The position numbers were made by a program, and so were the translations under genes. Shown in pieces: positions 2,322-19,119 of a DNA stretch of 19,119 nucleotides. The notes beneath the pieces are model-generated. The model had not been told where the DNA came from and did no database searches. It worked only from the letters and a program-made list of their open reading frames with translations. The stretch comes from a virus. Lineage: Duplodnaviria; Heunggongvirae; Uroviricota; Caudoviricetes. The first letter of the stretch is position 1. The number at the start of each line of letters is the position of its first letter. The DNA is taken from IMG/VR virus record IMGVR_UViG_2529292923_000023. One strand, written 5' to 3'.

Positions 2322-2337
2322 AGTAGCTAACTATTCA

Positions 2338-2365
2338 GGCACAGTATCATTACTGTGCCTTTTTA
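2338..2365 (+). terminator. Rho-independent terminator after the 321-aa cargo gene
   Basis: GGCACAGTA-tcatt-TACTGTGCC perfect 9-bp stem followed by TTTTTATT. Confidence 0.6.
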
Positions 2366-2435
2366 TTGTTCATATATGTACAGATACTTCCTCCCGTAAC
2401 GAAGCAACAACTATCGCTAAGAGGTTACGGGAAGC

Positions 2436-2639: not shown

Positions 2640-3070
2640 TGGAAAAGAAAAACCGCCCATTACAGGCGGCTAATTCAGATATTCGCGTATCTGATGTTAC
2701 GCCCCTGACAAAATCCCTTCAAGCACCAAAGCGCACACCGAAAAAGCATCGTGCCAGAGTCTATATGCTGCGTACTGGTATAGAGGGATGGACAGAAAAT
2801 GACATTCTTCGCTACTGCCGTCTGTCTTCTGGTCGTAACTATGCAACAGAGTTAGAACGCCAGCTTGGAATCACTCTGGAGCGTATCGACGAAAAGAATC
2901 CTGATGGTATCGGAACACACCTTCGCTACCGTTTCTCCTGCCGTGGTGATGTTCTGAAAGTGATCACTCATGTTAACCATCTTGCGAACATAAATGATCA
3001 CAACGGACTTTCTCAGCAGGAAATTGCCGACATTCTGAAACTCTACCCGAACGCGTTTAACGCCGCCTAA
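2639..3070 (+). CDS. Hypothetical protein (143 aa)
   Basis: ATG overlaps the alpA stop (ATGA-type coupling); same-strand operon context; no recognisable motif. Confidence 0.55.
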   Translation: MEKKNRPLQAANSDIRVSDVTPLTKSLQAPKRTPKKHRARVYMLRTGIEGWTENDILRYCRLSSGRNYATELERQLGITLERIDEKNPDGIGTHLRYRFSCRGDVLKVITHVNHLANINDHNGLSQQEIADILKLYPNAFNAA

Positions 3071-3082
3071 CGGAGACTGAAA

Positions 3083-3916: not shown

Positions 3917-4088
3917 GCCAACAGGAACACCACAACCACAAAAACGCTACAAAGATGCCCACGGAGCACTCGTTACTGTCGAAAGCGTGTCTCACAACCG
4001 AGTGACGTTTTATCGCGACGGGTATCAATCGCCATGCGTACAACCGCTGGCGCGTTTCATGAAGGAGTTCGCGGAGGTTAACCAATGA
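3909..4088 (+). CDS. Small hypothetical protein (59 aa), possibly a DUF4222-like phage protein
   Basis: In-frame ATG at 3909 overlapping the upstream stop (ATGTCTAA); the ORF track's longer 3822 start lies inside the upstream gene. Motif VTVESVSHNRVTFYRDGY is reminiscent of small prophage DUF proteins. Confidence 0.5.
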   Translation: MSKPTGTPQPQKRYKDAHGALVTVESVSHNRVTFYRDGYQSPCVQPLARFMKEFAEVNQ

Positions 4089-5152: not shown

Positions 5153-5339
5153 CTCAATTAATACCCCTCGCCTTACGTCCGCACTTCAATTAATCGAGCA
5201 AGCAGCGGCTGTCCTGGTTGCTGTCAGTCTTTCGGCTGAAGAAATGGACGCTACTGATGTCGTGGATGCGATTAAAGCGTGCTCATCTTTGGTTAACGAT
5301 GCCCGTGCAGAGCTGGTAATTCTTGGGGGTGAAAAATGA
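5145..5339 (+). CDS. Small hypothetical protein (64 aa)
   Basis: ORF with upstream GGGGG Shine-Dalgarno-like run; start overlaps the preceding stop; part of a co-directional coupled operon upstream of the primase. Confidence 0.55.
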   Translation: MNNSINTPRLTSALQLIEQAAAVLVAVSLSAEEMDATDVVDAIKACSSLVNDARAELVILGGEK

Positions 5340-5599
5340 ATATCAACTTAATTTATCGTCATCCGTGTGAGCTGGAAATTGAATCATTGCTGAGCCGTGA
5401 AGAACCATATCCAGACACATTCACTCTTGCAGATCGCACGACTGAACGGCTTACCAGAGCGCGCACAGGTCTGGTTCATGTGATGAATGAGATTCTTCCA
5501 TCGGTGGGAGGGGAACAGGCGACAGTAATCACTAGCTGGCTACAAAAAGTTACCTCTCTGATAGATATCAGTTTAATCGATGCGGAGAGTGCGAAATGA
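5336..5599 (+). CDS. Small hypothetical protein (87 aa)
   Basis: ATGA overlap with the upstream gene; GGGGGTGA Shine-Dalgarno. Confidence 0.55.
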   Translation: MNINLIYRHPCELEIESLLSREEPYPDTFTLADRTTERLTRARTGLVHVMNEILPSVGGEQATVITSWLQKVTSLIDISLIDAESAK

Positions 5600-5817
5600 C
5601 CAACATCCAGCTCATTGAAGCGCAATGTCGCATCGAACAGGTTCAGACTGTTTTAGGGTTCTGGCTTGAAGGGGCCAGCCCCAGCAACAGAGACAAGTTA
5701 ATGATTGGCGCGGTTATGTCACTGCTCAATGGCGTACCAGAAGCTATTCAGGAAGCAGACGAATTGTTGGGCAAATATGAGTTACAGAATCATTCAGGCG
5801 AGGCGAAACATGAATAA
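5596..5817 (+). CDS. Small hypothetical protein (73 aa)
   Basis: ATGA overlap with the upstream gene; GGAGAG Shine-Dalgarno. Confidence 0.55.
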   Translation: MTNIQLIEAQCRIEQVQTVLGFWLEGASPSNRDKLMIGAVMSLLNGVPEAIQEADELLGKYELQNHSGEAKHE

Positions 5818-6412
5818 TTTCTTAACTTTCCAGGCAGAAGCAACGCCTGACGGCGTAAACATCATGCACCGCAGCAACGATGGCATGACAGAACGCGTTG
5901 AGACCGTCTCATATATTGATGCCGTAAATCGTCTGGATGCCGGGGATTATGACGATAAACCAGATGAAGGTATGTCAATACATCTCGCTATTGCCGATGG
6001 CGGCAACCAGGGATATTTCGATTACACATCACAGCATAACGTCATTATGTGGAGATGGTTGATCGCAACAGTATTCATGCTGGAAATGAGAGAGGAAAAC
6101 GGCACTGTCAGCATCATTGATGATACTGGCAATCCTTCCGAAGTGGCTGTTTATTCCAACGGCATCGTCGCCATGCCGCTGTATCCAGTAGCAGAGCGCC
6201 TCGCTATGGCAAACAACATTGAGGGCGCGATGATAGAACGTTTTGGCATCGAGTCTGGCACAGAACGCTCCATCATTTTCTACAGAGCCATGATGGATGT
6301 GGAACAAGGAGCACTGACTCCATTTGGTCGTGAAACGCTTGCTGAACTTCACAACAGCTTTATAGCTGAACTGAATGAAAACGGCATGCCATCGGAACCA
6401 GTGACGCACTGA
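5810..6412 (+). CDS. Hypothetical protein (200 aa from ATG 5810; ORF track gives a longer 5705 start inside the upstream gene)
   Basis: ATG at 5810 preceded by a GAGG Shine-Dalgarno and overlapping the upstream stop by 8 nt; acidic protein with no recognisable motif. Confidence 0.55.
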   Translation: MNNFLTFQAEATPDGVNIMHRSNDGMTERVETVSYIDAVNRLDAGDYDDKPDEGMSIHLAIADGGNQGYFDYTSQHNVIMWRWLIATVFMLEMREENGTVSIIDDTGNPSEVAVYSNGIVAMPLYPVAERLAMANNIEGAMIERFGIESGTERSIIFYRAMMDVEQGALTPFGRETLAELHNSFIAELNENGMPSEPVTH

Positions 6413-6422
6413 GGATGGAACC

Positions 6423-6764
6423 ATGATTACTAAAAATTTCCGACTGAATGCGCTGGCAAATAAGTATGCGTCAGCACTGTATAACCACATTACCTCCACC
6501 AGCGGCGGGGACTATTTCATGATTGATGCGGACGGAGAGGCCGTACGTGTGGAAATCGTCAATGGAGTAAAAGGCGTTCGCAGCCTGATCGATAGTTACG
6601 CACTGGCAGCCATGAAAGTGTTCTACCCGCAGTGGGAAACCGTGGGGATCGAGCTTCTTGATCGTTGCGTCACTAAGGACAGATTGACTGACGTCGGGCG
6701 TGAGATATGGCAAAGCATGGTTAATGACATGGGCGCAACTGTAGCGGGAGGTTCTCATGCGTGA
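6423..6764 (+). CDS. Hypothetical protein (113 aa)
   Basis: GAGGA Shine-Dalgarno 7 nt upstream of ATG; operon context. Confidence 0.6.
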   Translation: MITKNFRLNALANKYASALYNHITSTSGGDYFMIDADGEAVRVEIVNGVKGVRSLIDSYALAAMKVFYPQWETVGIELLDRCVTKDRLTDVGREIWQSMVNDMGATVAGGSHA

Positions 6765-7128
6765 AAATGCAGAAATGGCGCTTAGCTCCGCAATCGGAGA
6801 GCAGGTGGCAAAGATTGCTGGTGCTGTGTGGATTCATAACCTTCATTCTACTGGTGAAGAGAAAATGGCAATTCAGACGCCAGAGGGACGCACTATTACT
6901 ACATCTCTGAAGCCGTCAGATGTTTGTGATCTGATTTGCGCATTCATGTACCCAGCAATGAGGACTGTCCACGGCGATAAGTGGAAACTTGCGACAACCG
7001 CTGAATTTGATATGTGGCTAAACAATGATGGCATGCTGACTGATTACGGAATAACCAAGTGGCAGATGCTGGTTAGCCATATCGCAAACGCTATAGACCA
7101 CGTGGGGTACGGTGATGCGAAACATTGA
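6757..7128 (+). CDS. Hypothetical protein (123 aa)
   Basis: GGGAGG Shine-Dalgarno; start overlaps the upstream stop; immediately precedes and overlaps the primase gene. Confidence 0.6.
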   Translation: MRENAEMALSSAIGEQVAKIAGAVWIHNLHSTGEEKMAIQTPEGRTITTSLKPSDVCDLICAFMYPAMRTVHGDKWKLATTAEFDMWLNNDGMLTDYGITKWQMLVSHIANAIDHVGYGDAKH

Positions 7129-9871
7129 TCTTATCCGTCAGGTTATCAGTGCGTCTGAAAACAACTGGCCTCATGTGCTGGGCTGCCTGAACATAAATGT
7201 CCCTGACTCTCCGCGCCGTCATGCTCCCTGCCCTGCATGTGGGGGCAAAGATCGATTCCGGTTCGATGACAACGGGCGCGGTAGCTTCATCTGTAATCAG
7301 TGCGGCGCTGGTGATGGGCTGGATTTAATTAAACGCGTAAATAACTGCGACACAACAGAGGCGGCGCTGCTTGCCGCTGATGTTCTGGGTATTGATTACC
7401 GGACAACGGAAACACCAGAAGCCACCAGCCAGAAACGGGAACAACTGGAAACCGAGCGCCAGCAACGCGAACAGGAGCGCCTGAAAAGGGCGGAGAAGGA
7501 CGAACAACAAAGACGGGATACGTTTTCCCGTCAGTTTGATGACATGCGCAGAAAGGCTGTAAACGGCAAATCTGATTATCTGGTTGCGAAAGGGGTAGGT
7601 GATTTTACATTCCCCGTGTTGCCCGATGGATCTCTGTTGCTGGCGCTGGTGGATAAATCCGGCGCAGTCACAGCAGCACAGACTATTACCTCACATGGTG
7701 AAAAAAGACTCCTGACAGGTTCAGCAAAGCGGGGGGCATATCACGCCATAAACGCACCAGAAACAACACAGAGCATCTTAATCGCAGAAGGGCTGGCAAC
7801 GGCATTATCTGCCCATTTAATTCGTCCAGAGGCGCTGACAGTGGCGGCGATTGATGCCGGGAACCTGTTATATGTCGCCCAGGTACTGCGGGATAAATTT
7901 CCTTCAGCACAAATCATCATTGCTGCGGATAACGACCACAGCGAAGGAAGACAAAACACGGGGAGAATAGCAGCAGAAAAAGCAGCTTTATCTGTTTCTG
8001 GATGGGTGGCATTACCCCCGACAGGTCACAAAGCAGACTGGAATGATTACCACCAAAAACACGGCATTAAATGCGCCACAGAAGCGTTCAATAAGTCAAT
8101 GTACCAACCACAGGGTAATGGCGTGAAACAGGAGCCACAGACCATTGAGGGAAGCGATTTTAAGGTTATGGATACCGACCCACTGAAACCAAGAATAGAA
8201 AGCCGCGAGGATGGTATTTATTGGGTATCTCCGAGAGCTGACAGCCAGAGTGGAGAAATCATCAATAACGAAAGCTGGTTATGTTCTCCGTTAAGCGTTA
8301 TCGGTACTGGCAGAGACGATAAAGACCAGTATCTCATTCTTCGCTGGCTGTCGTTTGGTTCTGAAACGCCGACAACCGCTGCCATTCCACTGGCTGATAT
8401 TGGTGAACGTGAAGGATGGCGCACACTTAAAGCTGGTGGGGTAAATGTCACGACCAAAAGCAGCCTCAGAGCAATACTGGCAGACTGGCTACAACGCAGT
8501 GGCTCTCGTGAATTGTGGCGTGTTGCTCATGCCACTGGCTGGCAATGCGGAGCGTACATCATGCCTGATGGGGAAATCATCGGAACACCTGAAAATCCTG
8601 TGCTGTTCAGCGGGAGAAGCTCAGCCGCAGCCGGATATACCGTCTCAGGGAGCGCGCAAAGCTGGCGTGATAACGTGGCGCGTCTGGCCTTTGGTAACTA
8701 TTCAATGATGACCGGGATCGGCGCAGCACTGGCAGCACCATTGATTGGGCTGGTGGGCGCTGACGGGTTCGGCATTCATTTCTATGAGCAGTCGAGCGCA
8801 GGTAAGACCACCACGGCAAACGTGGCGAGCAGCTTATACGGCAACCCTGATTTACTGCGGCTGACGTGGTACGGAACCGCGCTGGGGCTGGCAAATGAGG
8901 CCGCCGCCCACAATGACGGACTAATGCCGCTTGATGAAGTTGGTCAGGGCGCTGATCCTGTCAGCGTTTCACAGTCTGCCTATGCGTTATTTAACGGTGT
9001 AGGGAAACTGCAAGGCGCTAAAGATGGTGGAAACCGGGATCTAAAACGCTGGCGTACAGTGGCAATCAGCACCGGAGAAATGGATTTAGAAACATTTATC
9101 GCTACTTCCGGGCGAAAAACCAAAGCCGGGCAACTGGTGCGACTGCTGAATATTCCGTTGAGTAAAGCAGTACGCTTTCACGATTACCAGAACGGAAAAC
9201 AGCACGCAGACGCACTGAAAGACGCTTACCAGCATCACCATGGCGCAGCCGGGCGTGAGTGGATTAAATGGCTGGCAGACCACCAGCAACAGGCTATTAA
9301 AACTGTTCGTGATTGCGAAAGCAGATGGAGAAGCCTGATCCCACCCGATTATGGTGAGCAGGTTCACCGTGTAGCCGCGCGATTTGCCATTCTGGAGGCC
9401 GCATTGTTGTTAGGCGAGGTTGTAACAGGCTGGGATGCTCAGACATGCCGTGATGCGATACAGCACAGCTATAACGCATGGTTGCGCGAGTTCGGCACAG
9501 GTAACAAAGAGCATCAGCAGATTATTGAACAAACGGAGGCATTTCTTAATGCCTATGGGCTTAGCCGTTTTGCACCATTTCCATACAGCCCGGCAGATTT
9601 GCCCATCAAAGATTTAGCCGGATACCGTCAGCGTGGAGAACATGACGAAAGCCCAATGATTTTCTACACATTCCCGGCCACATTTGAAAAGGAGATCGCA
9701 TGTGGTTTCAACGCAAAACAGTTTGCTGAAGTGTTGAAAAAAGCCGGGATGCTAACCCCACCAAACAGCGGTCGTGGATACCAAAGAAAATCACCACGTA
9801 TTCAGGGACGACAAATAAACGTTTATGTACTCAATTACCAGCCAGGAGATTATAACTCATCTGAAGAATGA
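7115..9871 (+). CDS. P4 alpha-like primase-helicase (zinc-ribbon + Toprim + DUF927/D5-type P-loop NTPase)
   Basis: 918 aa from ATG 7115 (the ORF-track start at 7112 is a GTG). N-terminal CPACGG...CNQCG zinc-binding motif. Toprim-like acidic motifs (IAEGLATA; IIIAADNDH). Walker A (SSAGKTTTANV) and Walker B-like (LMPLDEVG) in the C-terminal half. An iteron-type origin lies directly downstream. Confidence 0.9.
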   Translation: MRNIDLIRQVISASENNWPHVLGCLNINVPDSPRRHAPCPACGGKDRFRFDDNGRGSFICNQCGAGDGLDLIKRVNNCDTTEAALLAADVLGIDYRTTETPEATSQKREQLETERQQREQERLKRAEKDEQQRRDTFSRQFDDMRRKAVNGKSDYLVAKGVGDFTFPVLPDGSLLLALVDKSGAVTAAQTITSHGEKRLLTGSAKRGAYHAINAPETTQSILIAEGLATALSAHLIRPEALTVAAIDAGNLLYVAQVLRDKFPSAQIIIAADNDHSEGRQNTGRIAAEKAALSVSGWVALPPTGHKADWNDYHQKHGIKCATEAFNKSMYQPQGNGVKQEPQTIEGSDFKVMDTDPLKPRIESREDGIYWVSPRADSQSGEIINNESWLCSPLSVIGTGRDDKDQYLILRWLSFGSETPTTAAIPLADIGEREGWRTLKAGGVNVTTKSSLRAILADWLQRSGSRELWRVAHATGWQCGAYIMPDGEIIGTPENPVLFSGRSSAAAGYTVSGSAQSWRDNVARLAFGNYSMMTGIGAALAAPLIGLVGADGFGIHFYEQSSAGKTTTANVASSLYGNPDLLRLTWYGTALGLANEAAAHNDGLMPLDEVGQGADPVSVSQSAYALFNGVGKLQGAKDGGNRDLKRWRTVAISTGEMDLETFIATSGRKTKAGQLVRLLNIPLSKAVRFHDYQNGKQHADALKDAYQHHHGAAGREWIKWLADHQQQAIKTVRDCESRWRSLIPPDYGEQVHRVAARFAILEAALLLGEVVTGWDAQTCRDAIQHSYNAWLREFGTGNKEHQQIIEQTEAFLNAYGLSRFAPFPYSPADLPIKDLAGYRQRGEHDESPMIFYTFPATFEKEIACGFNAKQFAEVLKKAGMLTPPNSGRGYQRKSPRIQGRQINVYVLNYQPGDYNSSEE

Positions 9872-9893
9872 GCTTCTTCATGTGCGTAGAAAA

Positions 9894-10007
9894 GGTGTTG
9901 GTTCAGTTGGTTCAGTTGGTTCAATTTGTAAAGAGTATTGTTTTATAAGGATTTTATTCTTTTTATTGAACCAACACTGAACCAACAACACGGTATTTTG
10001 AACCAAC
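9894..10007. repeat. Iteron cluster 1 (putative ori): 3 tandem GTTGGTTCA (9897-9923), AT-rich spacer, 3 TGAACCAAC (9967-9975, 9978-9986, 9999-10007)
   Basis: Direct reading of the repeats; classic iteron/AT-rich unwinding-element architecture immediately 3' of the primase-helicase gene. Confidence 0.75.
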
Positions 10008-10327
10008 ACAATGTGACTGAATTGATGCGCACAACACCTGGCTGGCATCAGAGAGTGTTTTACGAGACTTTCGTAAAATCCTGTGTACAAGGGCGTGACG
10101 TTTTTGAAAGTGAGCACTACGAAATTTTCGTAGTTCAAAAAACAGCCTCTGAGAAGTTGTTATGCCTGTTCAGCAAACCATCCGCATAGCTGATCGCGAA
10201 TCAAATTACCAATGGAGCCAGAAGCAAGGGCAGAACTGAAAAGCGCCTGCCGTGAAGAGTAATGCGATACCATAAATATAGTTTTTAGAGTCCATAAAAA
10301 ACCTGTCAAAACCTGACACACAGAACG

Positions 10328-10360
10328 ATGCCACCAGCTACTGAGCGGTGGCATTTTTTT
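10328..10360 (+). terminator. Rho-independent terminator (likely ends the primase/ori transcript)
   Basis: ATGCCACC-agctactgagc-GGTGGCAT stem followed by TTTTTTT. Confidence 0.6.
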
Positions 10361-10422
10361 GTGCTATTTGTTTCATATTTTGCAATTACGATGATGAATA
10401 TTGCGATTTGTGAAACCATAAT

Positions 10423-10442
10423 AACTGTTGTTTTATACAGTT
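10423..10442. promoter_or_regulatory. LexA-like SOS box (AACTGTTGTTTTATACAGTT) overlapping the putative promoter of the downstream cassette
   Basis: CTGT-N8-ACAG with AT-rich spacer and the same symmetric AACTGT/ACAGTT flanks as the dinD box at 18095-18114; sits 14 bp upstream of the 53-aa ORF start, just after the terminator. Confidence 0.4.
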
Positions 10443-10455
10443 CTAAGGGGGCGTT

Positions 10456-10617
10456 ATGGCTATTTCAGTAAAGCCGGTATTGATAAGTGAGAAGCAAATG
10501 GAAGCGATAAAGAAAATTCAGGAAGAGCAGCGTAAAAAATCAGGAATTGGAGTAGCGCCAACTCTGCATGAAATTGCACGAGGGTTAATAGATAAGGCGC
10601 TGGCAGGCTGTATGTGA
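10456..10617 (+). CDS. Small protein (53 aa), possible ribbon-helix-helix (Arc/CopG-like) regulator or antitoxin; below the ORF-track size cutoff
   Basis: AAGGGGG Shine-Dalgarno 5 nt upstream of ATG. Predicted beta-strand (PVLIS), helix (EKQMEAIKKIQEEQ), Gly turn, helix (TLHEIARGLIDKAL) pattern. First gene of the cassette. Confidence 0.45.
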   Translation: MAISVKPVLISEKQMEAIKKIQEEQRKKSGIGVAPTLHEIARGLIDKALAGCM

Positions 10618-10633
10618 AAATGGATGGCATCGC

Positions 10634-11095
10634 ATGGAACTAAAATTTATTGATAACCCTGTGCGATTACAGGCCTTTCTTAACGAGCCAGGCAATACCG
10701 AAAATATTGTTGAGCCGGGGCACACGTACTACATCAAGCCTGATGCGGTATATCTCGGCATCTACGAAGGATTAGTGCTGGCTGGCGTTCATGAAGTGCG
10801 TAACTTCTGGCATAGCGTTGTTGAATGCCATGCGGTGTACGACCCCGGATTCCGTGGTGAATATGCACTGCAAGGGCATCGATTATTCTGCAAATGGCTT
10901 CTCGAAAACTCACCATTCCTTAACAGCATCACCATGGTTCCTGACACCACCAAATACGGACGGGCAATTATCCGTTTGCTTGGCGCTACCCGTGTTGGTC
11001 ACCTTGATGATGCTTATATCAGATGTGGTAAACCCGTCGGCGTAACGCTTTATCAGTTAACTCGGCAACAATATAAGGAATTCAGCGAATGTTAA
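10634..11095 (+). CDS. Hypothetical protein (153 aa), Cys/His-containing, unknown function
   Basis: ORF 16 bp after the 53-aa gene; overlaps the next gene start (coupled); no recognisable motif. Confidence 0.6.
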   Translation: MELKFIDNPVRLQAFLNEPGNTENIVEPGHTYYIKPDAVYLGIYEGLVLAGVHEVRNFWHSVVECHAVYDPGFRGEYALQGHRLFCKWLLENSPFLNSITMVPDTTKYGRAIIRLLGATRVGHLDDAYIRCGKPVGVTLYQLTRQQYKEFSEC

Positions 11096-11766
11096 TTACC
11101 CATATAGCTCATAAACATCTCAATCGTGCCGTATACGAAAAAGGCGGTGATGGTGGTGCCTCTAAAGCTCAGGCGAAGGCCCAGCAGCAGGCAATTGATT
11201 TGCAGCGCGAGCAGTGGAATACGGTGATGAATAATCTCAAGCCGTATGCAGAAGTCGGATTGCCTGCTTTACAACAACTGCAAGGACTGATGACTCTGGA
11301 AGGGCAGAATAAAGCCGCGAATGATTTCTTTGGTTCTGGTTTATATAAAACACAGGCAGATCAGGCCCGTTATCAGAACCTTGTCTCAGCAGAAGCTACC
11401 GGGGGGCTTGGCTCAACAGCTACCAGTAACCAGTTATCTTCCATTGCGCCCATGCTTTATAACAATTGGCTCAGTGGGCAAATGCAAAATTATGGAAACC
11501 TGCTAAATGTCGGGATGAATGCGGCATCAGGGCAGGCAACGGCAGGGCAAAACTACGCCAATAATACCGGACAACTCTTGCAGGGGCTTGGCGCTATTCG
11601 TGCAGGTCAGGCGCAGCAGCCATCCAGTCTTGCGCGTGGTATTGGTGGGGCAGCATCAGGCGCTTTAGCGGGTGCGCAACTTGGTTCCGTTGTTCCTGGA
11701 ATAGGAACTGCGGCCGGCGCTATTGGTGGTGGGCTTATTGGTCTTGTTGGGGGGCTTGGATTCTAA
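11089..11766 (+). CDS. Hypothetical Gln/Ala/Gly-rich protein (225 aa) with glycine-zipper C-terminus; possible phage ejection/internal virion protein (P22 gp7-like by size and position)
   Basis: No cysteine; low-complexity Q/A/N/G composition; C-terminal GxxxG-rich hydrophobic tail (GAIGGGLIGLVGGLGF); translationally coupled to neighbours. Confidence 0.65.
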   Translation: MLITHIAHKHLNRAVYEKGGDGGASKAQAKAQQQAIDLQREQWNTVMNNLKPYAEVGLPALQQLQGLMTLEGQNKAANDFFGSGLYKTQADQARYQNLVSAEATGGLGSTATSNQLSSIAPMLYNNWLSGQMQNYGNLLNVGMNAASGQATAGQNYANNTGQLLQGLGAIRAGQAQQPSSLARGIGGAASGALAGAQLGSVVPGIGTAAGAIGGGLIGLVGGLGF

Positions 11767-13187
11767 TGGCGACATGGCAACTTGGCGGGCTGCCTAGCAT
11801 GGCACCGCAAAATGATAATGCTCCTCGTTCTTCCGTTCCTCAGCCTGTGCAGTATCAGCAGCAGCCAAACGTAGGTTTAATGGCGCTACAGGGGCTAAGA
11901 GGCGTTGCTGAGATTAATCAGCAGGCACGTCAACAACAGCGTAAATCAGAGTTTCAGAAAGCATATGCCGGGGCTTTTGAGTCTGGAGACAGAAACAAAA
12001 TGCGCAGTCTTATTTCTGAGTATCCAGAAGAATTTGAAAGCGTTCAGAAAGGGATGGGCTTTATTGATGACGACCAGAGAAATTCTATTGGTCATCTTGC
12101 GACTAGTGCTCAAATCGCATCTTCGCTCGGAACTGGGGCATTTGGAAAATTCATAGCAGATAACGAAGATGAAATGCGTCGCTTGGGAATTTCTCCTGAG
12201 TCTGTTGCCGAAATGCATGTTAATGATCCACAGGGATTCCAGCGGCTTGCTGGTAGTATGGCACTGTTTTCTCTCGGTCATGAGAAGTATTTCGATATCA
12301 AAGATCAAATGGAAGGTCGGGATATTGAGCGAGGCAGGCTGGCAGAGACAATCCGCAGCAATCAGGCTGGCGAAGCACTTCAGGCGAGAGGGCAGGATAT
12401 TAGCCGAGCAAATGCGTTAACGTCAGCATATGCACCAACAGCAGCAATGCAGAATTACAATCAGTACGCTCAAATGTTAAAGGCGGATCCAGAGGGGGCG
12501 GCGGCATTTGCGGCAGCGGCTGGAATTAATACAAACGCCAAAAAATTAATGAGTGTTAGAGAAAACGATGATGGCACTGTCACAAAATACTACACAGACG
12601 GAAGTGAAGAGCAGGGAAAACTAAACCAGCCAATATCTGGAGATGGGTTTCGTCCAATAGCTTTGCCAACAGCCCAAAAGATCATGGAAAAGTCGCCAGA
12701 AGGGGCTAAAAAAGCTGCTGGATTTGCATACAGGGTTAGGGATGCTCTTGATTCAATAGATACACTGAAAGACCAGCTTAGCCCACAGCGAGTGGCGATC
12801 ATTAATAATGCTTTGGGTAATGGGACGCTGGCTAACTTAACGCTCAGCCCAACAGAGCAGCAATACGTTGTTAATGCTAATGACGCAATAATGGCAATAC
12901 TCCGTCAGGAAACAGGGGCAGCTATCGTACCTGCTGAAATGTCAAAATATTATCAAATGTATTTCCCTCAGCCTGGCGACTCCACAAAAACCATTGATAC
13001 CAAGCGCCGGAAGATGGAAAACCAGTTCAATTCGCTGAAAGCTGCTTCTGGTCGAGCTTATGATGCTTTGCGGGTTATTTCAGCAGTTGACAGAGGAACG
13101 TCTTCTTCGTCGCAGACATTGCCGCAATCTGAGCAGGTATCACAGCCAGCAGCCAGCAGTAACTTTTCTTCACTATGGGGTGATTAA
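11766..13187 (+). CDS. Hypothetical Gln/Ala-rich protein (473 aa); possible phage ejection/internal virion protein (P22 gp20-like by size and position)
   Basis: TAATG start overlap; no cysteine in 473 residues; Q-rich N-terminus; long ORF with good codon usage. Confidence 0.7.
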   Translation: MATWQLGGLPSMAPQNDNAPRSSVPQPVQYQQQPNVGLMALQGLRGVAEINQQARQQQRKSEFQKAYAGAFESGDRNKMRSLISEYPEEFESVQKGMGFIDDDQRNSIGHLATSAQIASSLGTGAFGKFIADNEDEMRRLGISPESVAEMHVNDPQGFQRLAGSMALFSLGHEKYFDIKDQMEGRDIERGRLAETIRSNQAGEALQARGQDISRANALTSAYAPTAAMQNYNQYAQMLKADPEGAAAFAAAAGINTNAKKLMSVRENDDGTVTKYYTDGSEEQGKLNQPISGDGFRPIALPTAQKIMEKSPEGAKKAAGFAYRVRDALDSIDTLKDQLSPQRVAIINNALGNGTLANLTLSPTEQQYVVNANDAIMAILRQETGAAIVPAEMSKYYQMYFPQPGDSTKTIDTKRRKMENQFNSLKAASGRAYDALRVISAVDRGTSSSSQTLPQSEQVSQPAASSNFSSLWGD

Positions 13188-15292
13188 TGGCTAAAGCATG
13201 GAAAGATGTTATCGCCTCTCCACAGTATCAGGCGTTAGCACCAGAACAAAAAGCGCAGGCTCAGGAGCAATACTTCAATGAAGTCGTTGCCCCGCAAGCC
13301 GGAGAAAGTGTAGAGCAGGCTAAGCAGGCTTTTTATGCTGCCTATCCACTACCATCAACGAATGAAATAGACCGATCCCAATCAGCAACTCAAAATATTC
13401 AACATACATCATCTGATAATTCTCTTGCGTCAGGGTATGCAAAGTTAGCTACTCAGCAAAGAGAGGGGCTTGAGCGTTCAGCAGAACAGGGAGCCAGTCT
13501 TGGGGCTGCGATGCGCGATGCTATAACAGGCGAAAGCCGAATGACTTCAGAGATGGAGAGACTGCAAAATGTCGCCTCTGCCCCAGAATTGAACTCACTA
13601 AGCATGGATGCCCTAAAGGCTGGATGGTCCCAACTTTTCGGCTCTGACGCGTCTCAGGAAAAGATTCTTCAGGGAATGGGGGCGACATTAAGGCAGGATG
13701 AGAAGGGGAATACTATCGTTTCTCTGCCATCAGGTGATTATGCCCTGAACAAGCCGGGTTTATCACCGCAAGACCTGACTTCGTTTCTTGCTAATGCGTT
13801 GGCGTTTACACCAGCGGGCAGGGCTGGAACGGTGCTTGGTGCCATAGGAAAATCAGCAGCTACAGATTTAGCACTACAGGGAGCCACCAGCCTTGCTGGT
13901 GGAGAAGATATTGATCCGTTACAAACGGTAATTTCTGCTGGCATTGGTGGTATTGGTAAGGGGCTGGAAAATACAGCGAGTGCGGTTTCGAGGGCTGTTC
14001 GTGGTGATATGTCGCCTGAAGCAAAGGCTGCTGTCGACTTTGCATCGGAAAGAAATCTGCCGTTAATGACCAGTGACATGCTGAAAGATAAAACCTTTAT
14101 GCAGAGTCAGGCTCAGACATTAGGCGAAAGAGTTCCTTTTTTTGGAACCGGTAAGAATCGGCTGAATCAACAACAAGCACGAGAAAATTTAGTCAGAACA
14201 TTTAGCGATGGTCTGGGTGGCATTTCTGATAAACAGCTTTATGAATCTGCGACTAAAGGGCAACAAAAATTCATTGAGGCAGCAGGAAAGCGATATAACC
14301 GCATAATTGACGCTATGGGGGATACCCCTGTCGATCTCTCAAACACGGTAAAAGCTATCGACAATCAGATTGCCGTGTTAAGCCGCCCGGGCAAATCTCA
14401 GGATAGAGCCGCGGTAAAAGTCTTGCAGCAATTTAAAGACGATATCACCAGCGGACCAAATGACCTGCGCCTGGCGAGGGAAAACAGAACCGATCTTCGA
14501 AAGCGATTTATTGCGTCATCTGACACTGTTGATAAAGATACGCTCCAGAAAGCCAGCGATATTATCTACAAGGCATATACGGCGGATATGAAAAAAGCCG
14601 TAGCCAAAAATCTTGGAGCAGACGAAGCCATTAATATGGCAAGGGTTGATCGCTCATGGTCTAAATTCAATAACATGATGGGAAGAACGCGCGTTCAAAA
14701 GGCAATAGCCAGCGGCAAGGCCACGCCTGAGGATGTAACAAAACTCGTTTTTAGCCAAAGCCCATCAGAACGTTCTCAGCTTTACAGGCTTCTGGATGAC
14801 AATGGTAGGCAAAACGCACGAGCAGCCATAGTTCAGAATGCTGTAGATAAGGCGACTGATCCGTCTGGAAATATCAGTGTTGAGAAGTTTATTAATGCGT
14901 TACACCGGAACAGGAAGCAATCAGCAACTTTCTTTAAAGGCGTACATGGGAAGGAACTGGACGGCGTTATTAAATACCTCAACGATACAAGACACGCGGC
15001 AAAAGCGAACGTTCAAAACTTAAATGGTCAGCAGCTTTATGGATTGTTAGTTGGTGGTGGCATCATAAACGCAGCAGTATTAGCGGGGATGCTAAAAACG
15101 GCTGCGTTTGTTGTTCCTGCTGCTGGTGCCGTAGGCGGAGCAGCGAAGGCATACGAAACCCCTGTTATACGAAATGCCTTGTTACGTCTGGCAAATACGC
15201 CAAAAGGTAGCACAGCATATGACAGAGCGATCAGTACGGTCACACAATCGCTCACCAGAGTCGCACAGGCATCACAAAAAGAAGCTCAATAA
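13187..15292 (+). CDS. Hypothetical Gln/Ala-rich protein (701 aa) with hydrophobic Gly/Ala-rich C-terminal segment; possible phage ejection/internal virion protein (P22 gp16-like by size and position)
   Basis: TAATG start overlap; no cysteine in 701 residues; C-terminal LLVGGGIINAAVLAGMLKTAAFVVPAAGAVGGAAKAY membrane-like segment. Confidence 0.75.
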   Translation: MAKAWKDVIASPQYQALAPEQKAQAQEQYFNEVVAPQAGESVEQAKQAFYAAYPLPSTNEIDRSQSATQNIQHTSSDNSLASGYAKLATQQREGLERSAEQGASLGAAMRDAITGESRMTSEMERLQNVASAPELNSLSMDALKAGWSQLFGSDASQEKILQGMGATLRQDEKGNTIVSLPSGDYALNKPGLSPQDLTSFLANALAFTPAGRAGTVLGAIGKSAATDLALQGATSLAGGEDIDPLQTVISAGIGGIGKGLENTASAVSRAVRGDMSPEAKAAVDFASERNLPLMTSDMLKDKTFMQSQAQTLGERVPFFGTGKNRLNQQQARENLVRTFSDGLGGISDKQLYESATKGQQKFIEAAGKRYNRIIDAMGDTPVDLSNTVKAIDNQIAVLSRPGKSQDRAAVKVLQQFKDDITSGPNDLRLARENRTDLRKRFIASSDTVDKDTLQKASDIIYKAYTADMKKAVAKNLGADEAINMARVDRSWSKFNNMMGRTRVQKAIASGKATPEDVTKLVFSQSPSERSQLYRLLDDNGRQNARAAIVQNAVDKATDPSGNISVEKFINALHRNRKQSATFFKGVHGKELDGVIKYLNDTRHAAKANVQNLNGQQLYGLLVGGGIINAAVLAGMLKTAAFVVPAAGAVGGAAKAYETPVIRNALLRLANTPKGSTAYDRAISTVTQSLTRVAQASQKEAQ

Positions 15293-15296
15293 CTGG

Positions 15297-15319
15297 TTAG
15301 CCATGGATGGCTAATTTTT
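15297..15319. terminator. Hairpin terminator between convergent genes (TTAGCC-atggat-GGCTAA + TTTTT)
   Basis: 6-bp stem, 6-nt loop, T-run on + strand; lies between the stop of the 701-aa gene and the stop of the minus-strand membrane gene. Confidence 0.45.
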
Positions 15320-15661
15320 GTTCTTTGCTCTCATCCATAGGTAAAGAAGGGAAAGAACAAGACAAAAAACAGAGAATAGATAACCTACCTCATATGGTGC
15401 GCCAAAAAAATTAGCCATTGATACGGGCAAAAAAGCTGAAGCGATCAAAATTGAAAGGCAAAAAATAAGCCCAGTAATATAGTTTATTAAATTCTTAAAT
15501 GAGAAACGTTTTGCTTGATTTACGGTCTTAACGAACGATCGCTTAACGACGGATAAAAGCAAATAGATGGCGACAGTTGCTAATGCCCCTTTCCACCAGT
15601 CTGGATATAGTTTTGCGACAATCAGACCAAGGAAAACCATGATGACAGCCTGAGCATTCAC
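15311..15661 (-). CDS. AT-rich polytopic small membrane protein (about 116 aa from GTG at 15661; the ORF allows an upstream ATG at 15730)
   Basis: Strong AAGGGAGGG Shine-Dalgarno 5 nt upstream of the GTG at 15659-15661; three to four hydrophobic helices; markedly AT-rich relative to neighbours; convergent with the cassette. Confidence 0.55.
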   Translation of the reverse strand: MNAQAVIMVFLGLIVAKLYPDWWKGALATVAIYLLLSVVKRSFVKTVNQAKRFSFKNLINYITGLIFCLSILIASAFLPVSMANFFGAPYEVGYLFSVFCLVLSLLYLWMRAKNKN

Positions 15662-15846
15662 ACCAACCCTCCCTTTAGCTTTGTTTAGAATGGCAATCAT
15701 CATATATCCAAGACATGGCATTTGGTACATAGCTTGGGTCGGGATTTCAAATCCGATCCCCGTTGATGGGGCCGTTACAGTACGCGCATATCCTCTTTAT
15801 GTGAAACAGGAAGATTTTTCTGATATCACTGCCACAGCAAAACACC

Positions 15847-16156
15847 AATTTCGTGACCAGTACGCGCGCGAGGGGTATCAGTTGCAAAAAATTTTGCAAC
15901 TGCGTCCGACCAGTACGCACACGATGGCGGGGAGCACCATAAAACTGTTCTCTACATAAGACAGAGTGGTGGTGATGTGTTGATTATCGGCGTATATGCG
16001 CACAGGACGCGCTATGACGATGTTTTATGCGGGTACACCAATCACATGTATCTGGTGTGATCAATCGCGTTACATGACATCTCATGTTGTGCTGGTGATT
16101 ATCACGACGTTCTGAATCTGGCCTTTGCCTGATATTTTGCGACAAGTACGCGCGCG
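15847..16156. repeat. Non-coding region carrying a 24-bp repeat family (AATTTCGTGACCAGTACGCGCGCG-like; copies at 15847-15870 and 16134-16156, a third at 17743-17766) plus degenerate copies and palindromes
   Basis: Direct reading; three near-identical copies sharing the TACGCGCGCG core; imperfect palindrome CAGTTGCAAAA-AA-TTTTGCAACTG at about 15879-15902. Confidence 0.5.
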
Positions 16157-16184
16157 TAGCATCGACAGCATACACATTGGATAT

Positions 16185-16385
16185 TCATTTTGTGACCAAT
16201 GCGATAAGTAGCGGGATAAGAATTGATAAAATCAACAGGACGATGATCCACTTTTGATTCTCGTCCATCTTATCTGCTAGGCGACGCTCCATTCCGTGCA
16301 TATCACCGCGAATGGCAATCATCTCATTGCGAACATCCGAGAAGTGGTTGGCTTGATGTTCAATGTGTGGCGTTCTGCCTTTCAT
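16185..16385 (-). CDS. Small C-tail-anchored membrane protein, XhlA-like (66 aa)
   Basis: GAGGA Shine-Dalgarno upstream; charged helical N-terminal part followed by one C-terminal transmembrane segment (WIIVLLILSILIPLLIALV), the architecture of XhlA/holin-like small proteins. Confidence 0.5.
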   Translation of the reverse strand: MKGRTPHIEHQANHFSDVRNEMIAIRGDMHGMERRLADKMDENQKWIIVLLILSILIPLLIALVTK

Positions 16386-16464
16386 GTCTGATCCTCACCT
16401 ATCGTCACCACCTGATGGTGTATAAAGGTATTAGCCCAAGCAGCTTTCCAATGGGCACTCATGT

Positions 16465-16920
16465 TTATACGCTGACCTTACAATCAATCACCGCTTTTAA
16501 CTTTTCAGCATTGCTTCCCTGACGCTTCCACGCGCTGTAAATATCTTTATCCCACGCTTTACCAGCTTTTGTTTGATAGCCTGCTTCATTGATCCGTTCA
16601 GCTATCACACGCCCATTATCAAATCCCTGTTGGATGGTATCGGCAATGATCTTCATAACTGCCGTTTCGTTATATGGTTTTGGTGGGATGTTCGGCTTTC
16701 CGGCAATAAGCGACGCAGCGGCTTTTTCCATGCGCTCCACCAGCCCAAGCATTCGTGAATCAATAGACTTTTCCGGCTGCCCCAGCTTCATGCGAATCGC
16801 ATCAACAAGCCAAGAGGTTTTATCTCCTCCAGAAGCGAGAACAGACCGATTAAACTCATCCTGCAATTCAGATGGGATGCGGAACGCGATCAGATTAGAT
16901 TTGCTCATTGCAAAGACCAT
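16465..16920 (-). CDS. Ribbon-helix-helix (Arc/Mnt-like) transcriptional regulator (151 aa; alternative start at 16908)
   Basis: N-terminal SNLIAFRIPSELQDEFNRSVLASGGDKTSWLVDAIRM fits the Arc-family RHH pattern (beta-strand, helix, Gly turn, helix); palindromic operator-like sites immediately upstream; divergent from the PerC-like gene. Confidence 0.6.
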   Translation of the reverse strand: MVFAMSKSNLIAFRIPSELQDEFNRSVLASGGDKTSWLVDAIRMKLGQPEKSIDSRMLGLVERMEKAAASLIAGKPNIPPKPYNETAVMKIIADTIQQGFDNGRVIAERINEAGYQTKAGKAWDKDIYSAWKRQGSNAEKLKAVIDCKVSV

Positions 16921-16937
16921 ATCAGTGAGTAATATCC

Positions 16938-16969
16938 ATACAGTATACCACTGTATAACACTGTTATAC
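16938..16969. promoter_or_regulatory. Two overlapping palindromes (ATACAGT-atacc-ACTGTAT and GTATAACA-c-TGTTATAC) in the RHH regulator's promoter region; putative operators
   Basis: Perfect inverted repeats read directly; positioned 18-50 bp upstream of the RHH gene start on the minus strand. Confidence 0.4.
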
Positions 16970-17022
16970 GCTCAAATATCAGCCAGAAAATAACAGACCA
17001 ATCACAAATCTATCGCTGTGTT

Positions 17023-17143
17023 GTTGGTTCAGAGCTGGGCTGTGTTGGTTCAAAATGAGTTGATGTTGGTTCAATATTTTAGAAAAAACACAATAAAAAC
17101 AACGCTCTTTACAAATTGAACCAACTGAACCAACTGAACCAAC
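17023..17143. repeat. Iteron cluster 2 (crr-like): 3 GTTGGTTCA (17023-17031, 17044-17052, 17065-17073), AT-rich spacer, 3 tandem TGAACCAAC (17117-17143); inverted copy of cluster 1
   Basis: The reverse complement of 17102-17147 is essentially identical over about 46 bp to 9890-9935 (AAAGGTGTTGGTTCAGTTGGTTCAGTTGGTTCAATTTGTAAAGAG), with continued but diverged similarity beyond. Confidence 0.75.
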
Positions 17144-17179
17144 ACCTTTTTGCTTATCTATATAATCTGAGAGGCAGAA

Positions 17180-17467
17180 ATGATAAAGGACAGGAAAGCT
17201 GAAGAGCTGGAGTCAAAAGGGCTATACCGGAGAGCTGCCGCACGATGGGCAGAAGTCATGATGCTGGCAGATGGCGATAAAGAACGTGAACATGCAGCAA
17301 ACAGACGCTCTGAATGTATCCGTAAGGCGGCACGCCCACCAGCAACTACAGACAGATTCGGAGATTTAAGACAGGCAGTTAAGCGGACTCATTCGGCTCT
17401 TGGTATGGATGAGGAAGCGAGAGGGTACTTCAGGCGTTATCGCGATAAAGATTGCCAGAGACAGTAA
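17180..17467 (+). CDS. PerC-family transcriptional regulator-like protein (95 aa)
   Basis: N-terminal AEELESKGLYRRAAARWAEV matches the PerC/Pch family signature (ELE.KGLWRRAA.RW); GAGAGG Shine-Dalgarno; a TATAAT hexamer at 17161-17166 just downstream of the iterons. Confidence 0.65.
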   Translation: MIKDRKAEELESKGLYRRAAARWAEVMMLADGDKEREHAANRRSECIRKAARPPATTDRFGDLRQAVKRTHSALGMDEEARGYFRRYRDKDCQRQ

Positions 17468-17973
17468 TGCTCTCTCTGTTTTGGCAAATTACCCCTCACT
17501 TTGAAGGGATCGGAGCTATAAAAATGGTGTTATCCGGAATCCTCAAATTGAGGATTGTGGAAGAATCAATGGGTTAGGTCATCGTGCAAATTTGCACTCT
17601 GCCAGCCAACGCAATTTCTCGTTGGCGGAAATATCAGGTATTTACTGAACGAACGGTCTACCAGTCTGTTCAGTTACCAGTTGCACATGGCTGTTTCATG
17701 TGAGAACGGAGGTTTTTTTCGGACATCGCTATTGGGTACAGCAATTTCACGAGCAATACGCGCGCGCAGGACAACAAGCCTGAACATGGTTACACACCTC
17801 GATCCTGAGGGATGTAGACAATGGCTTCTGACCAAAGCACCCGAAAAAACCGTGTACATAAGGGTGTACATAATCAAAAATCGCATTAGAAAGAAACCAG
17901 CCACAATGCGGCATTAAAGCCAACACTCTACAAACAGATTCAAACGCCAATTCTTACTTTTCAGCCTTCACAA

Positions 17974-18004
17974 ATGCCGCCCACTCAAACAGAGCGGCAT
18001 TTTT
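17974..18004 (+). terminator. Possible rho-independent terminator (ATGCCGC-loop-GCGGCAT + TTTTT)
   Basis: 7-bp stem with 13-nt loop and T-run; no convincing upstream CDS, so it may end a small RNA or a read-through transcript. Confidence 0.4.
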
Positions 18005-18094
18005 CTTCCCCGCAACTTCAATTCTGTTTTGCGTGCCTGCTCCAGATTTTGCGATGTTTTTTTGCCCAGCGCAGTGAGAACGTGAGATACTCAC

Positions 18095-18114
18095 AACTGT
18101 ATATAAACACAGTT
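18095..18114. promoter_or_regulatory. LexA (SOS) box AACTGTATATAAACACAGTT upstream of the dinD-like gene
   Basis: Perfect CTGT-N8-ACAG with AT spacer matching the LexA consensus TACTGTATATATATACAGTA; overlaps a TATAAA -10-like hexamer; about 45 bp upstream of the ATG. Confidence 0.8.
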
Positions 18115-18157
18115 GTAGACTTACTTTCCTTGCAATCGATATCACATGGAGTGGGCA

Positions 18158-19119
<962 letters not shown>

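Follow-up and report, generated by a model that had tools for sequence, protein, structure and literature searches.

A P22-type ejection-protein cassette as the putative DNA-delivery module of an EcCIMP1-like phage satellite

Introduction

Why would a mobile element that carries no capsid, portal, terminase or tail gene encode the proteins with which a P22-like phage conducts its DNA across the cell envelope? The question is raised by a 19,119-nt stretch of DNA (IMG/VR virus record IMGVR_UViG_2529292923_000023; hereafter the window, meaning the full stretch, to which all coordinates refer unless another locus is named), in which relatives of P22 genes 14, 7, 20 and 16 lie inside a chromosomal island. 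Phage satellites steal or resize the capsids of their helpers, redirect helper terminases or bring heads of their own. No satellite is so far known to supply the machinery for injecting its DNA.

We consider it likely, though well short of settled, that this region is the DNA-delivery module of a phage-inducible chromosomal island (PICI) of the EcCIMP1 type, a satellite of P22-like podophages (Lederbergvirus), whose ejection proteins would be loaded into helper capsids and would deliver the island DNA. The original prediction, made from the sequence of the window, offered three readings of a cassette of ejection-protein type: a satellite that supplies its own ejection proteins, a decoy or exclusion function, and a rearranged prophage remnant. 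The cassette is real and that prediction was right in outline, with the first of its readings now the best supported of the three, if unproven. The locus is less unusual than was thought, as the family is both common and published.

Results

The cassette consists of relatives of P22 genes 14, 7, 20 and 16

Four overlapping open reading frames (ORFs) of 153, 225, 473 and 701 aa occupy positions 10634–15292 on one strand. The first (10634–11095, + strand) encodes a member of the P22 gp14 family (Pfam DUF2824, E = 1.5e-61; PHROG 651, 1e-66), which bears out the suggestion that the 153-aa gene ahead of the other three is the counterpart of gene 14. It is 84% identical to gp14 of the P22-like phage Kapi1 and 23–24% identical to those of P22 and N7. 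More generally, gp14 exists as two deeply divergent types, one in Kapi1 and the satellites and the other in P22 and N7, with 23–24% identity between them. A GNAT acetyltransferase fold is predicted for the protein with high confidence: its AlphaFold2 model has a predicted local distance difference test score (pLDDT) of 93 and a predicted template modelling (TM) score of 0.86, and Foldseek matches it to SpeG-type GNATs (E = 1e-8, TM-score 0.74–0.78).

The second protein (225 aa, 11089–11766, + strand) is of the gp7 type (PF25688 P22_gp7, 6.6e-73; PHROG 598, 3e-70) and is 55–58% identical to gp7 of Kapi1, N7 and P22. The region of the E|KGG processing site and residues 21–154, the procapsid-binding part in P22, are both conserved. 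The third (473 aa, 11766–13187, + strand) is of the gp20 type and matches PF16928 (Inj_translocase, the P22 gp20 family; about 3e-58) over residues 34–213 and PHROG 917 (1.7e-112) over its full length. Its first ~210 residues are conserved (35–45% identity) and its C-terminal half is divergent; the best phage match is to APSE (52%), and the Sf6 and P22 proteins align with it only over residues 1–213.

The fourth protein (701 aa, 13187–15292, + strand) is of the gp16 type. It matches PHROG 770 (“DNA transfer protein”, 1e-161) over its full length, carries PF26808 (Phage_P22_gp16) in the precomputed annotation of an identical product and is 30% identical to P22 gp16 over ~480 aa (blastp, 3e-53). 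The copy of Pfam that was scanned has no gp16 model and returned only noise for this protein, and the assignment therefore draws on PHROG, blastp and the precomputed PF26808 match. The body of the protein is 67% identical to that of the E. coli phages N7/HZ41, its best phage match in tblastn, the first ~56 codons are 96.5% identical in DNA to Sf6 gene 13, and a C-terminal motif, RNALLRLANTPKGSTAYDRA, is conserved in the alignment while most of the protein is divergent. By this patchwork of matches the gene is a mosaic, a pattern typical of these genes.

The gene order 14-7-20-16 on a single strand is that of P22, Kapi1 and N7. The profile comparisons with P22 gp7, gp20 and gp16 that had been proposed as a check of the P22-type resemblance thus gave strong matches to all three families (E from about 3e-58 to 1e-161), and by family and order the cassette genes qualify as orthologue-grade counterparts of P22 genes 14, 7, 20 and 16. 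The comparison with T7 gp14–gp16, proposed alongside, gave no detectable sequence similarity. NCBIfam and PADLOC contain no match for any cassette protein, and a sequence search of Protein Data Bank chains returned none for the gp14-, gp20- and gp16-like proteins. In their sequences the alleles are far from those of any sequenced phage, with 67% as the best identity for gp16 and 52% for gp20. By analogy with a T7-based model, the gp7-type protein would form the outer-membrane-proximal part of a conduit, the gp20-type protein its periplasmic tube and the gp16-type protein its inner-membrane end.

The composition of the proteins had first drawn attention to the locus, and most of what was said of it stands. 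The 225-, 473- and 701-aa proteins contain no cysteine in 1399 residues, compared with 51 cysteines in 3349 residues (1.5%) of the 14 other ORFs in the window (P of about 5e-10, with residues taken as independent). The cysteine counts of gp7/gp20/gp16 are 0/0/0 in P22 and 1/0/0 in Kapi1 and N7, and by these counts the absence of cysteine is a trait of the protein families and not peculiar to this element. The proteins are, as described, rich in Gln, Ala, Asn and Gly, and in Ser as well (gp7-like protein: Gly 16%, Ala 15%, Gln 11%, Asn 8%). The statement that two of them end in membrane-like tails is roughly right: the 225-aa protein has a Gly/Ala-rich, hydrophobic C-terminal tail (hydropathy peak at residues 205–223), and the hydrophobic stretch of the 701-aa protein (residues 617–635) is close to its C-terminus but not terminal. 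Hydropathy profiles reveal no hydrophobic tail in the 473-aa protein and no N-terminal hydrophobic segment in any of the three, which therefore have no apparent signal peptide.

The cassette was originally taken to start at 10423. The four ORFs stand, and that span also covers a further, previously unmentioned ORF of 53 aa (s53; 10456–10617, + strand). This conserved, satellite-specific ORF stands at the head of the cassette in all satellite variants and has no family match. A terminator-like hairpin with a T-run (10319–10363, + strand) parts the replication region from the cassette operon, and a second one with a 9-bp stem and a T-run (15295–15326, + strand), directly 3' of the gp16 stop codon, marks the end of the operon. 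Judged by these hairpins and the overlapping frames, the four genes form one terminator-bounded operon, with s53 first, 3' of the island primase and putative origin. In P22-like phages, portal, coat and genes 4, 10 and 26 lie upstream of these genes and the tailspike gene downstream; here the upstream neighbours are the primase and the putative origin, and the island has no virion genes.

The cassette lies in a complete island of the EcCIMP1 family

The island is ~18.1 kb long, from the yicC stop codon to about position 17943, as established by comparison with E. coli strain 755 (99.7% identical to window positions 1–18384) and with the empty site of E. coli K-12. The island begins immediately after the yicC stop codon, 188 bp before the first base of the window. 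The right end (17851–17943) contains a 24-bp repeat, CGTGTACATAAGGGTGTACATAAT, at 17851–17874, and the junction with the chromosome is at about 17943. A second copy of the repeat lies ~107 bp inside the left end (L024:3970–3993). The repeat (consensus CGTGTACATArrGGTGTACATAAT) was considered as the att core and rejected, because the empty K-12 site places the junctions elsewhere; it may be a binding site for a recombination protein. The same island architecture is found at two attachment sites, yicC/dinD and thrW.

The gene order is integrase, cargo ORF, AlpA, a 143-aa ORF, AntA, Ash, small ORFs, primase, origin and terminator, followed by s53, the cassette genes, a terminator, a membrane-protein gene on the opposite strand, cargo, a second iteron set and PerC. 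This is the organization of a PICI: an island of 10–20 kb with defined junctions, a terminal integrase, AlpA after int, and a primase beside the putative origin. As had been noted for the window, there is no capsid, portal, terminase, tail or lysis gene, and none is found in the whole island of closely related annotated genomes either. The absence of terminase genes holds with one qualification, namely a non-coding fragment, 107 bp long, from the gene for the small terminase subunit (terS), which is present at 4233–4339 (see below).

The window is 97.5% identical in DNA to EcCIMP1 over positions 2629–11926. EcCIMP1 is a PICI of E. coli MP1 (GenBank OR778291) described by Pick, Stadel & Raivio (ISME J 2025; PMC11773190). 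It excises only upon induction of Kapi1, for which it needs alpA, whose product is the master activator of excision and transfer, and its own integrase, and it provides Kapi1 lysogens with extra superinfection immunity, although no known defence system was found in it (PMC11773190). Its authors labelled the cassette genes “hypothetical, DNA transfer-like” and guessed at a role in packaging (PMC11773190). From the identity of the backbones we infer that the island described here is likewise induced, excised and transferred by a helper.

The remnant or edge of a prophage, as which the region had also been interpreted, is rejected because the island is complete and bounded and has the same architecture at two att sites; its backbone is nearly identical to that of a mobilized PICI, and the close copies of the cassette that were inspected all lie in satellites.

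The cassette is a core module of the satellite family

The prevalence of the cassette was estimated by megablast against 5426 complete E. coli genomes. The whole cassette is present in 181 of them, the segment from the origin through s53, gp14 and gp7 in 253, and the present gp20/gp16 allele in 299. Roughly 5% of complete genomes of this species have the cassette. With this frequency, and with the EcCIMP1 family in print since 2025 and its genes drawn as “DNA transfer”, the rarity and novelty first attributed to the locus do not hold. A head or tail module beside the same cassette was not encountered: every close copy inspected belongs to a satellite (JP538, MP1, MSB1_8G, UTME-9, ETEC6334, 755, the Escherichia sp. 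representative and ten contexts with an exact match to s53), and it is the distant homologues that reside in prophages. When genomes representing individual species were scanned with an alignment of gp7, 15 loci were found, too few to gauge taxonomic spread, of which 13 are ordinary P22-like prophages with a full virion operon and one is a satellite; look-ups of s53 contexts served this purpose better. In 10 of 10 such contexts s53 stands between the primase and the ejection genes, its sequence is identical in EcCIMP1 and JP538, and in satellites of Citrobacter and Serratia, too, the cassette begins with an s53 homologue.

Two types of the cassette, with gp20 and gp16 of 473 and 701 aa or of 439 and 906 aa (the latter including an SLT domain), are freely reassorted between two integrases and their sites. 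There are also two-gene variants, in which s53 is followed by gp20 and gp16 with no gp14 or gp7 (L004:13410–17159, L005:11127–16159, L038:10001–14357). Between satellite copies, the ratio of nonsynonymous to synonymous substitution rates (dN/dS) is 0.155 for gp16 (171 substitutions), 0.30 for gp20 and 0.12 for gp7, compared to 0.16 for the primase, and s53 has a ratio of 0.13 relative to MSB1_8G. The gp16 ORF is intact in all five copies checked. By these measures the cassette is under purifying selection and is a core module of the satellite family.

Annotation artefacts hide the cassette in public genomes. In many of them (e.g. JP538, L001:22765–24870), the Prokaryotic Genome Annotation Pipeline (PGAP) flags the gp16-type gene as an “incomplete” pseudogene although its 701 codons are intact, and it names some gp20 fragments “acyltransferase”. 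In a satellite of Klebsiella michiganensis (L040:10001–13800), the s53 homologue is followed by different genes, which encode a 605-aa protein (PHROG 7694) with a C-terminal part resembling injection transglycosylases and tape-measure proteins and a 168-aa protein with a weakly TerS-like N-terminus. The slot after s53 may thus house other delivery or packaging genes of helper origin.

The islands carry candidate packaging signals derived from helper terS genes

The terS fragment at 4233–4339 (− strand) is a candidate pac site. It starts at P22 pac base 1, includes the 22-mer GAAGGTTTTTGTGGAGTCACTA and is 87% identical to P22 positions 4–110 and 90.7–91.6% identical to terS of the E. coli phages CurroJimenez, Dewey, Louie, IME10 and HZ41 (Lederbergvirus). 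The homology is strong (E from 2e-28 to 8e-35), with matches in 133 phage records, nearly all annotated as terS. The flanks of the block are unrelated to terS, and no ORF of at least 50 aa includes its terS frame. All 17 satellite loci compared have the block with identical, sharp borders, and it occurs in them as at least three alleles that match different phage alleles, with stretches identical to either the E. coli-phage allele or the P22 allele. Among satellites it is 84–100% identical, compared to 97–98% for its flanks. A block more variable than its flanks, with patches that correspond to different phage alleles, points to repeated exchange with helper genes.

In its 22-mer, 16 of 22 bases agree with P22 pac and 18 of 22 with the homologous 22-mer of E. 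coli phage terS. It also fits 16 of the 17 positions of the published pseudo-pac pattern (PMC10996546), a match that is not significant when taken alone, as a scan of the window with this pattern finds two matches at up to one mismatch, where 0.64 are expected. The argument for pac rests for this reason on the homology of the 107-bp block and on the repeat arrays described next.

Downstream of the cassette, a degenerate P22-pac-like unit, GAAGATTTTTCTGATATCACT (15810–15838, + strand), is followed by the first of three copies of a 26-nt motif resembling Kapi1 terS (CCAATTTCGTGACCAGTACGCGCGCG, 15845–15870, + strand); the other two are at 16131–16156 and 17741–17766 (both + strand). The motif has no match in 100 shuffles, its core GCGACAAGTACGCG is identical to Kapi1 terS, and every E. 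coli satellite checked carries three copies of it. The Citrobacter and Serratia satellites have no long terS block and instead contain, just downstream of the cassette, 4–10 units in the same orientation, GAAGrTTTwT..G..rTCACTACGCGAG (L042:16341–16880, L043:15739–16147, L044:16321–16795, L038:14820–15196), some of which fit the published pac pattern exactly, where chance predicts none. These units are interleaved with a second family of repeats (..ATTTCGCGACAAGTACGCGCGCG), to which the 26-nt motif of the window belongs and the best copy of which is 92% identical to Kapi1 terS nt 158–194.

Since the TerS of Kapi1 is unrelated to P22 gp3, the islands seem to be equipped with signals for packaging by two or more types of terminase, which would explain their packaging by Kapi1. 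Taken as candidate packaging signals, the terS-derived block and the pac-like arrays would be independent signs of adaptation to P22-like helpers. They predict that E. coli Lederbergviruses with a P22-type TerS (N7/HZ41, IME10, CurroJimenez) would be better helpers than Kapi1; N7/HZ41, predicted to be efficient on this ground, also possess the closest gp16. The pac mimics further provide a testable answer to how EcCIMP1 is packaged, a question left open in the paper that described it.

The sieA-like slot and the other genes of the island

Immediately after the cassette, on the opposite strand, a gene for a 139-aa protein with four hydrophobic segments (15311–15730, − strand) occupies the slot of P22 sieA. 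Position, strand and the four segments agree with SieA (hydropathy and P22 map). Its identity as SieA is rejected: the protein has no PHROG match, blastp detects no similarity between it and P22 SieA, and it lacks the motif FnRYPnEAnnFNK. The same slot is taken in other satellites by secreted proteins of 132 and 145 aa, whose genes share the first 15 codons with it (L004:17219–17617; L025:14899–15336), and in EcCIMP1 by a 232-aa lipoprotein (L002:6632–7330). None of these envelope proteins resembles SieA in sequence. They are candidates for the source of the superinfection immunity conferred by EcCIMP1.

The replication region consists of a primase/replicase with Zn-ribbon, Toprim and DUF927 domains (Pfam; 7112–9871, + strand), 99.3% identical at the protein level to that of a satellite of Escherichia sp. 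(L009), and of repeats at 9895–10010, found by a repeat search and by reading, namely three copies of GTTGGTTCA with 9-bp spacing, an AT-rich spacer and three inverted copies of TGAACCAAC. By analogy with the architecture of PICI origins and those of Staphylococcus aureus pathogenicity islands, this is probably the replication origin. A second iteron set, its mirror image, lies at 17024–17140, directly upstream of perC, and the two sets bracket the cassette and cargo region.

At the left end, a tyrosine integrase of 419 aa (1–1260, + strand; Pfam Arm-DNA-bind_3, Phage_int_M, Phage_integrase) is followed by an AlpA-family regulator (2436–2639, + strand; Phage_AlpA, 2.2e-8), an AntA/AntB-type antirepressor-like protein (3083–3916, + strand; AntA, 2.7e-21) and an Ash-family ORF of 355 aa (4085–5152, + strand; Phage_ASH, 3.1e-30, residues 124–232 only), whose N-terminal extension overlaps the terS-derived block. 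At the right end is a PerC-family regulator (17180–17467, + strand; PerC, 3.1e-33). Between perC and the island end, 60 bp (17519–17578) are 85% identical to part of Kapi1_032, an anti-repressor gene.

Cargo is found in two hotspots, after int (1242–2448) and after the cassette (16165–16510). The first contains a variable ORF of 321 aa (1356–2321, + strand) with no Pfam or NCBIfam match and a weak PADLOC match, and has been exchanged for different genes in JP538 and further satellites. In the second hotspot region, an ORF of 151 aa (16465–16920, − strand) has only weak matches, and JP538 has an Abi gene inserted beside it. Across the islands, the hotspots carry Abi, Fic, an M78 peptidase, GmrSD/HEPN, RnlA/RnlB and DUF6387 (L001, L027, L030, L034, L038, L039). 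Beyond the island, dinD is cut after 220 bp (18165–18384) by an IS21-family element, whose IstB is encoded at 18451–19113 (− strand); dinD is intact in strain 755.

Discussion

Proposed role of the cassette

After adsorption of P22, the ejection proteins exit the virion first and build a trans-envelope conduit. About 12 copies of gp7, 12 of gp16 and 30 of gp20 are recruited to procapsids by the scaffolding protein, for which the portal is not needed, and procapsid binding involves gp7 residues 21–154 and the N-terminal 314 residues of gp20 (PMC8402733). Whole sets of ejection proteins from Sf6, L, HK620 and CUS-3, whose gp16 proteins are 22–26% identical, assemble and work in P22 virions (PMC10461980). 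Within a set, gp16 and gp20 need to match, while gp7 can be swapped alone; if gp16 and gp20 are mismatched, P22 particles still assemble but do not infect (PMC10461980).

A divergent set carried by a satellite could therefore operate in the capsid of its helper. Upon induction of the helper, the island would replicate from its iteron origin, and the helper terminase would begin headful packaging at the terS-derived pac mimics. The cassette operon would be expressed after induction, and the gp7, gp20 and gp16 of the island would enter helper procapsids through the helper scaffolding protein, recruited by their conserved N-terminal and central parts and possibly aided by the gp14-like protein with the predicted GNAT fold. 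In the next cell, the island ejection proteins would leave the virion first and form the conduit for the island DNA. The distribution of conservation fits this reading, as the conserved parts are those that bind the procapsid in P22, whereas the divergent ones (the gp20 C-terminus and gp16) are where escape from SieA maps. The two-gene variants, which retain s53 with gp20 and gp16, fit the genetics of P22, where these two are a matched pair and gp7 is interchangeable.

The benefit to the island is a more speculative matter. SieA blocks injection, and mutations that escape it fall in the C-terminal parts of gp16 and gp20 (PMC10461980). A gp20/gp16 pair unlike that of the helper might render delivery independent of the helper allele and possibly allow entry into cells that exclude P22-type injection, a suggestion that we regard as doubtful. 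Cells with SieA-like exclusion would be lysogens of the helper, which the satellite would most need to reach. The ejection proteins of EcCIMP1 are 83, 57, 26 and 23.5% identical (gp14, gp7, gp20 and gp16, respectively) to those of its helper Kapi1 and therefore constitute an alternative set, not a spare copy. It is tentatively possible that this amounts to a distinct strategy of hijacking, in which capsid and terminase are not remodelled and the island combines pac mimics of several helpers, present in some genera as whole arrays and allowing packaging by several helper types, with its own matched gp20/gp16 conduit (with or without gp14 and gp7), for entry into excluding cells including helper lysogens.

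Several observations weigh against a delivery role. A search for promoters revealed no clear sigma-70 promoter in front of the cassette operon, and a minority of satellite cassettes are broken by IS3 or deletion. Transduction of EcCIMP1 by Kapi1 is infrequent (about 5e3 per ml), and Kapi1 titres are unchanged by EcCIMP1 (PMC11773190). Two sets of proteins in one cell would produce mixed capsids, and co-expression might do harm because P22 particles with mismatched gp16 and gp20 are non-infectious. The exclusion-evasion rationale in particular is weak because SieA excludes phages with very different ejection proteins, and the HK620-type proteins alone escape it, and only partly (PMC10461980).

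The same mismatch could be the point of the cassette. Island proteins that load into all capsids would, through incompatibility with helper gp20 and gp16, poison helper virions and lower the spread of the helper, as other satellites do via capsid-size redirection. P22 virions in which only gp16 or only gp20 is foreign do assemble and are non-infectious, the EcCIMP1 proteins are just 23–26% identical to those of Kapi1, and interference with helpers is common among satellites. However, capsids that carry the island would be equally poisoned, and a complete matched set including gp14 and gp7 is kept, which a poison would not require. The unchanged Kapi1 titres after induction argue against strong poisoning as well, and we find this explanation unlikely.

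Alternatively, the cassette or part of it could act in the resident cell, as a decoy that blocks the conduit of incoming P22-like phages, and so account for the immunity that EcCIMP1 adds in Kapi1 lysogens against Kapi1; no known defence system is present in EcCIMP1 or, according to PADLOC, in the cassette studied here. The three proteins, though, have no N-terminal hydrophobic segment, and ejection from the virion is their only route to the envelope when a phage infects. The operon occupies the “late/morphogenesis” slot behind a terminator, better candidates for exclusion adjoin it in the sieA-like slot (the protein with four transmembrane segments here, the lipoprotein in EcCIMP1), and the conserved procapsid-binding parts would be left unexplained. 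A role in exclusion is accordingly improbable. Least probable is a functionless hitch-hiker, i.e. P22-like prophage genes 14 to 16 captured by recombination and now passive or decaying: the mosaicism of these recombination-prone genes (with DNA patches 86–96% identical to phages here), the copies broken by IS3 or deletions and the PGAP “partial” calls would fit it, but dN/dS is 0.12–0.30, the ORFs are intact with the “partial” copy a full 701-codon ORF, satellites of E. coli, Citrobacter and Serratia retain the slot and the s53 leader even though their alleles differ, and the matched gp20/gp16 pair is kept in both two- and four-gene versions.

Implications

If the cassette proteins do ride in helper capsids, the entry step of transduction would be set by the satellite and not by the phage, and the satellite would also set the sensitivity to injection-blocking exclusion such as that by SieA. 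This bears on forecasts of how islands with defence systems and virulence regulators (PerC) will spread, given that such islands are found in ~5% of complete E. coli genomes and have relatives in Citrobacter and Serratia. The cassettes are, in addition, natural and very divergent sets of ejection proteins that can be used for studying the assembly of the P22 conduit. The literature search returned no paper on these islands besides Pick et al. 2025. As far as the searchable literature shows, the description of the cassette as a complete 14-7-20-16 module under selection as a core satellite function, the two-gene variants that keep a matched gp20/gp16 pair, and the terS-derived pac mimics and arrays are unpublished.

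Comparison with known systems

The T7 ejectosome, in which three internal proteins form a pore in the outer membrane, a tunnel across the periplasm and a hub at the inner membrane (PMC8954989), is a functional analogue only. T7 gp14, gp15 and gp16 have no detectable sequence similarity to the cassette proteins, on which ground a T7-like identity of the module is rejected.

With the classical PICIs of Gram-negative bacteria (EcCICFT073, EcCIEDL933) and with P4-like satellites, the island has in common the backbone of integrase, AlpA and primase, PerC and Ash/Icd-like genes, hotspots of defence cargo and a helper-dependent cycle. Classical PICIs hijack cos-type lambdoid helpers via Rpp or capsid genes, and P4 uses Sid, Psu and Delta together with the P2 cos site. 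The present island has none of these genes; ejection proteins occupy its morphogenesis slot, and a candidate pac mimic serves as the putative packaging signal. Products such as Sid, Psu, Delta or Epsilon are absent from the PGAP and Pfam annotation of four near-identical islands, in which cos was not searched for. A P4-like satellite is rejected as the identity of the element, since there is no Sid, Psu or Delta and only Ash, Icd-like genes and the primase are held in common.

The module itself agrees with P22 14-7-20-16, Sf6 gp11–13, Kapi1_055–058 and N7 ORF10–13 in protein families, gene order and overlapping start and stop codons. The centre of gp7, the N-terminal domain of gp20 and the C-terminal motif of gp16 are conserved, the cysteine-free composition is retained, and a small envelope-protein gene comes next on the opposite strand, in the place of P22 sieA. 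Unlike in the phages, where the module lies between the tail-needle and tailspike genes, it is located here behind s53 and the putative origin.

The closest known relative of the island as a whole is EcCIMP1. The two share the order int, alpA, a hypothetical gene, antA, DUF4222, ash, small ORFs, the DUF927 primase and s53, followed by DUF2824, gp7, gp20, gp16, cargo and perC. Their s53 sequences are identical and their gp14 and gp7 are 98–99% identical, and the terS-derived block and the three Kapi1-terS-like motifs are common to both. EcCIMP1 differs in having an integrase of 404 aa at the tRNA-Thr gene thrW, where the present one has 419 aa and the island sits after yicC; a gp20 of 439 aa, 48% identical in its N-terminus only to the 473-aa protein; a gp16 of 906 aa with a lytic transglycosylase domain, to which the 701-aa allele is unrelated; a lipoprotein in the post-gp16 slot, in place of the protein with four transmembrane segments; and a second alpA-like gene not seen in the window. 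By its sequence and gene order, the element described here is thus a member of the published EcCIMP1-like PICI family that differs in integrase, integration site, gp20/gp16 alleles and cargo.

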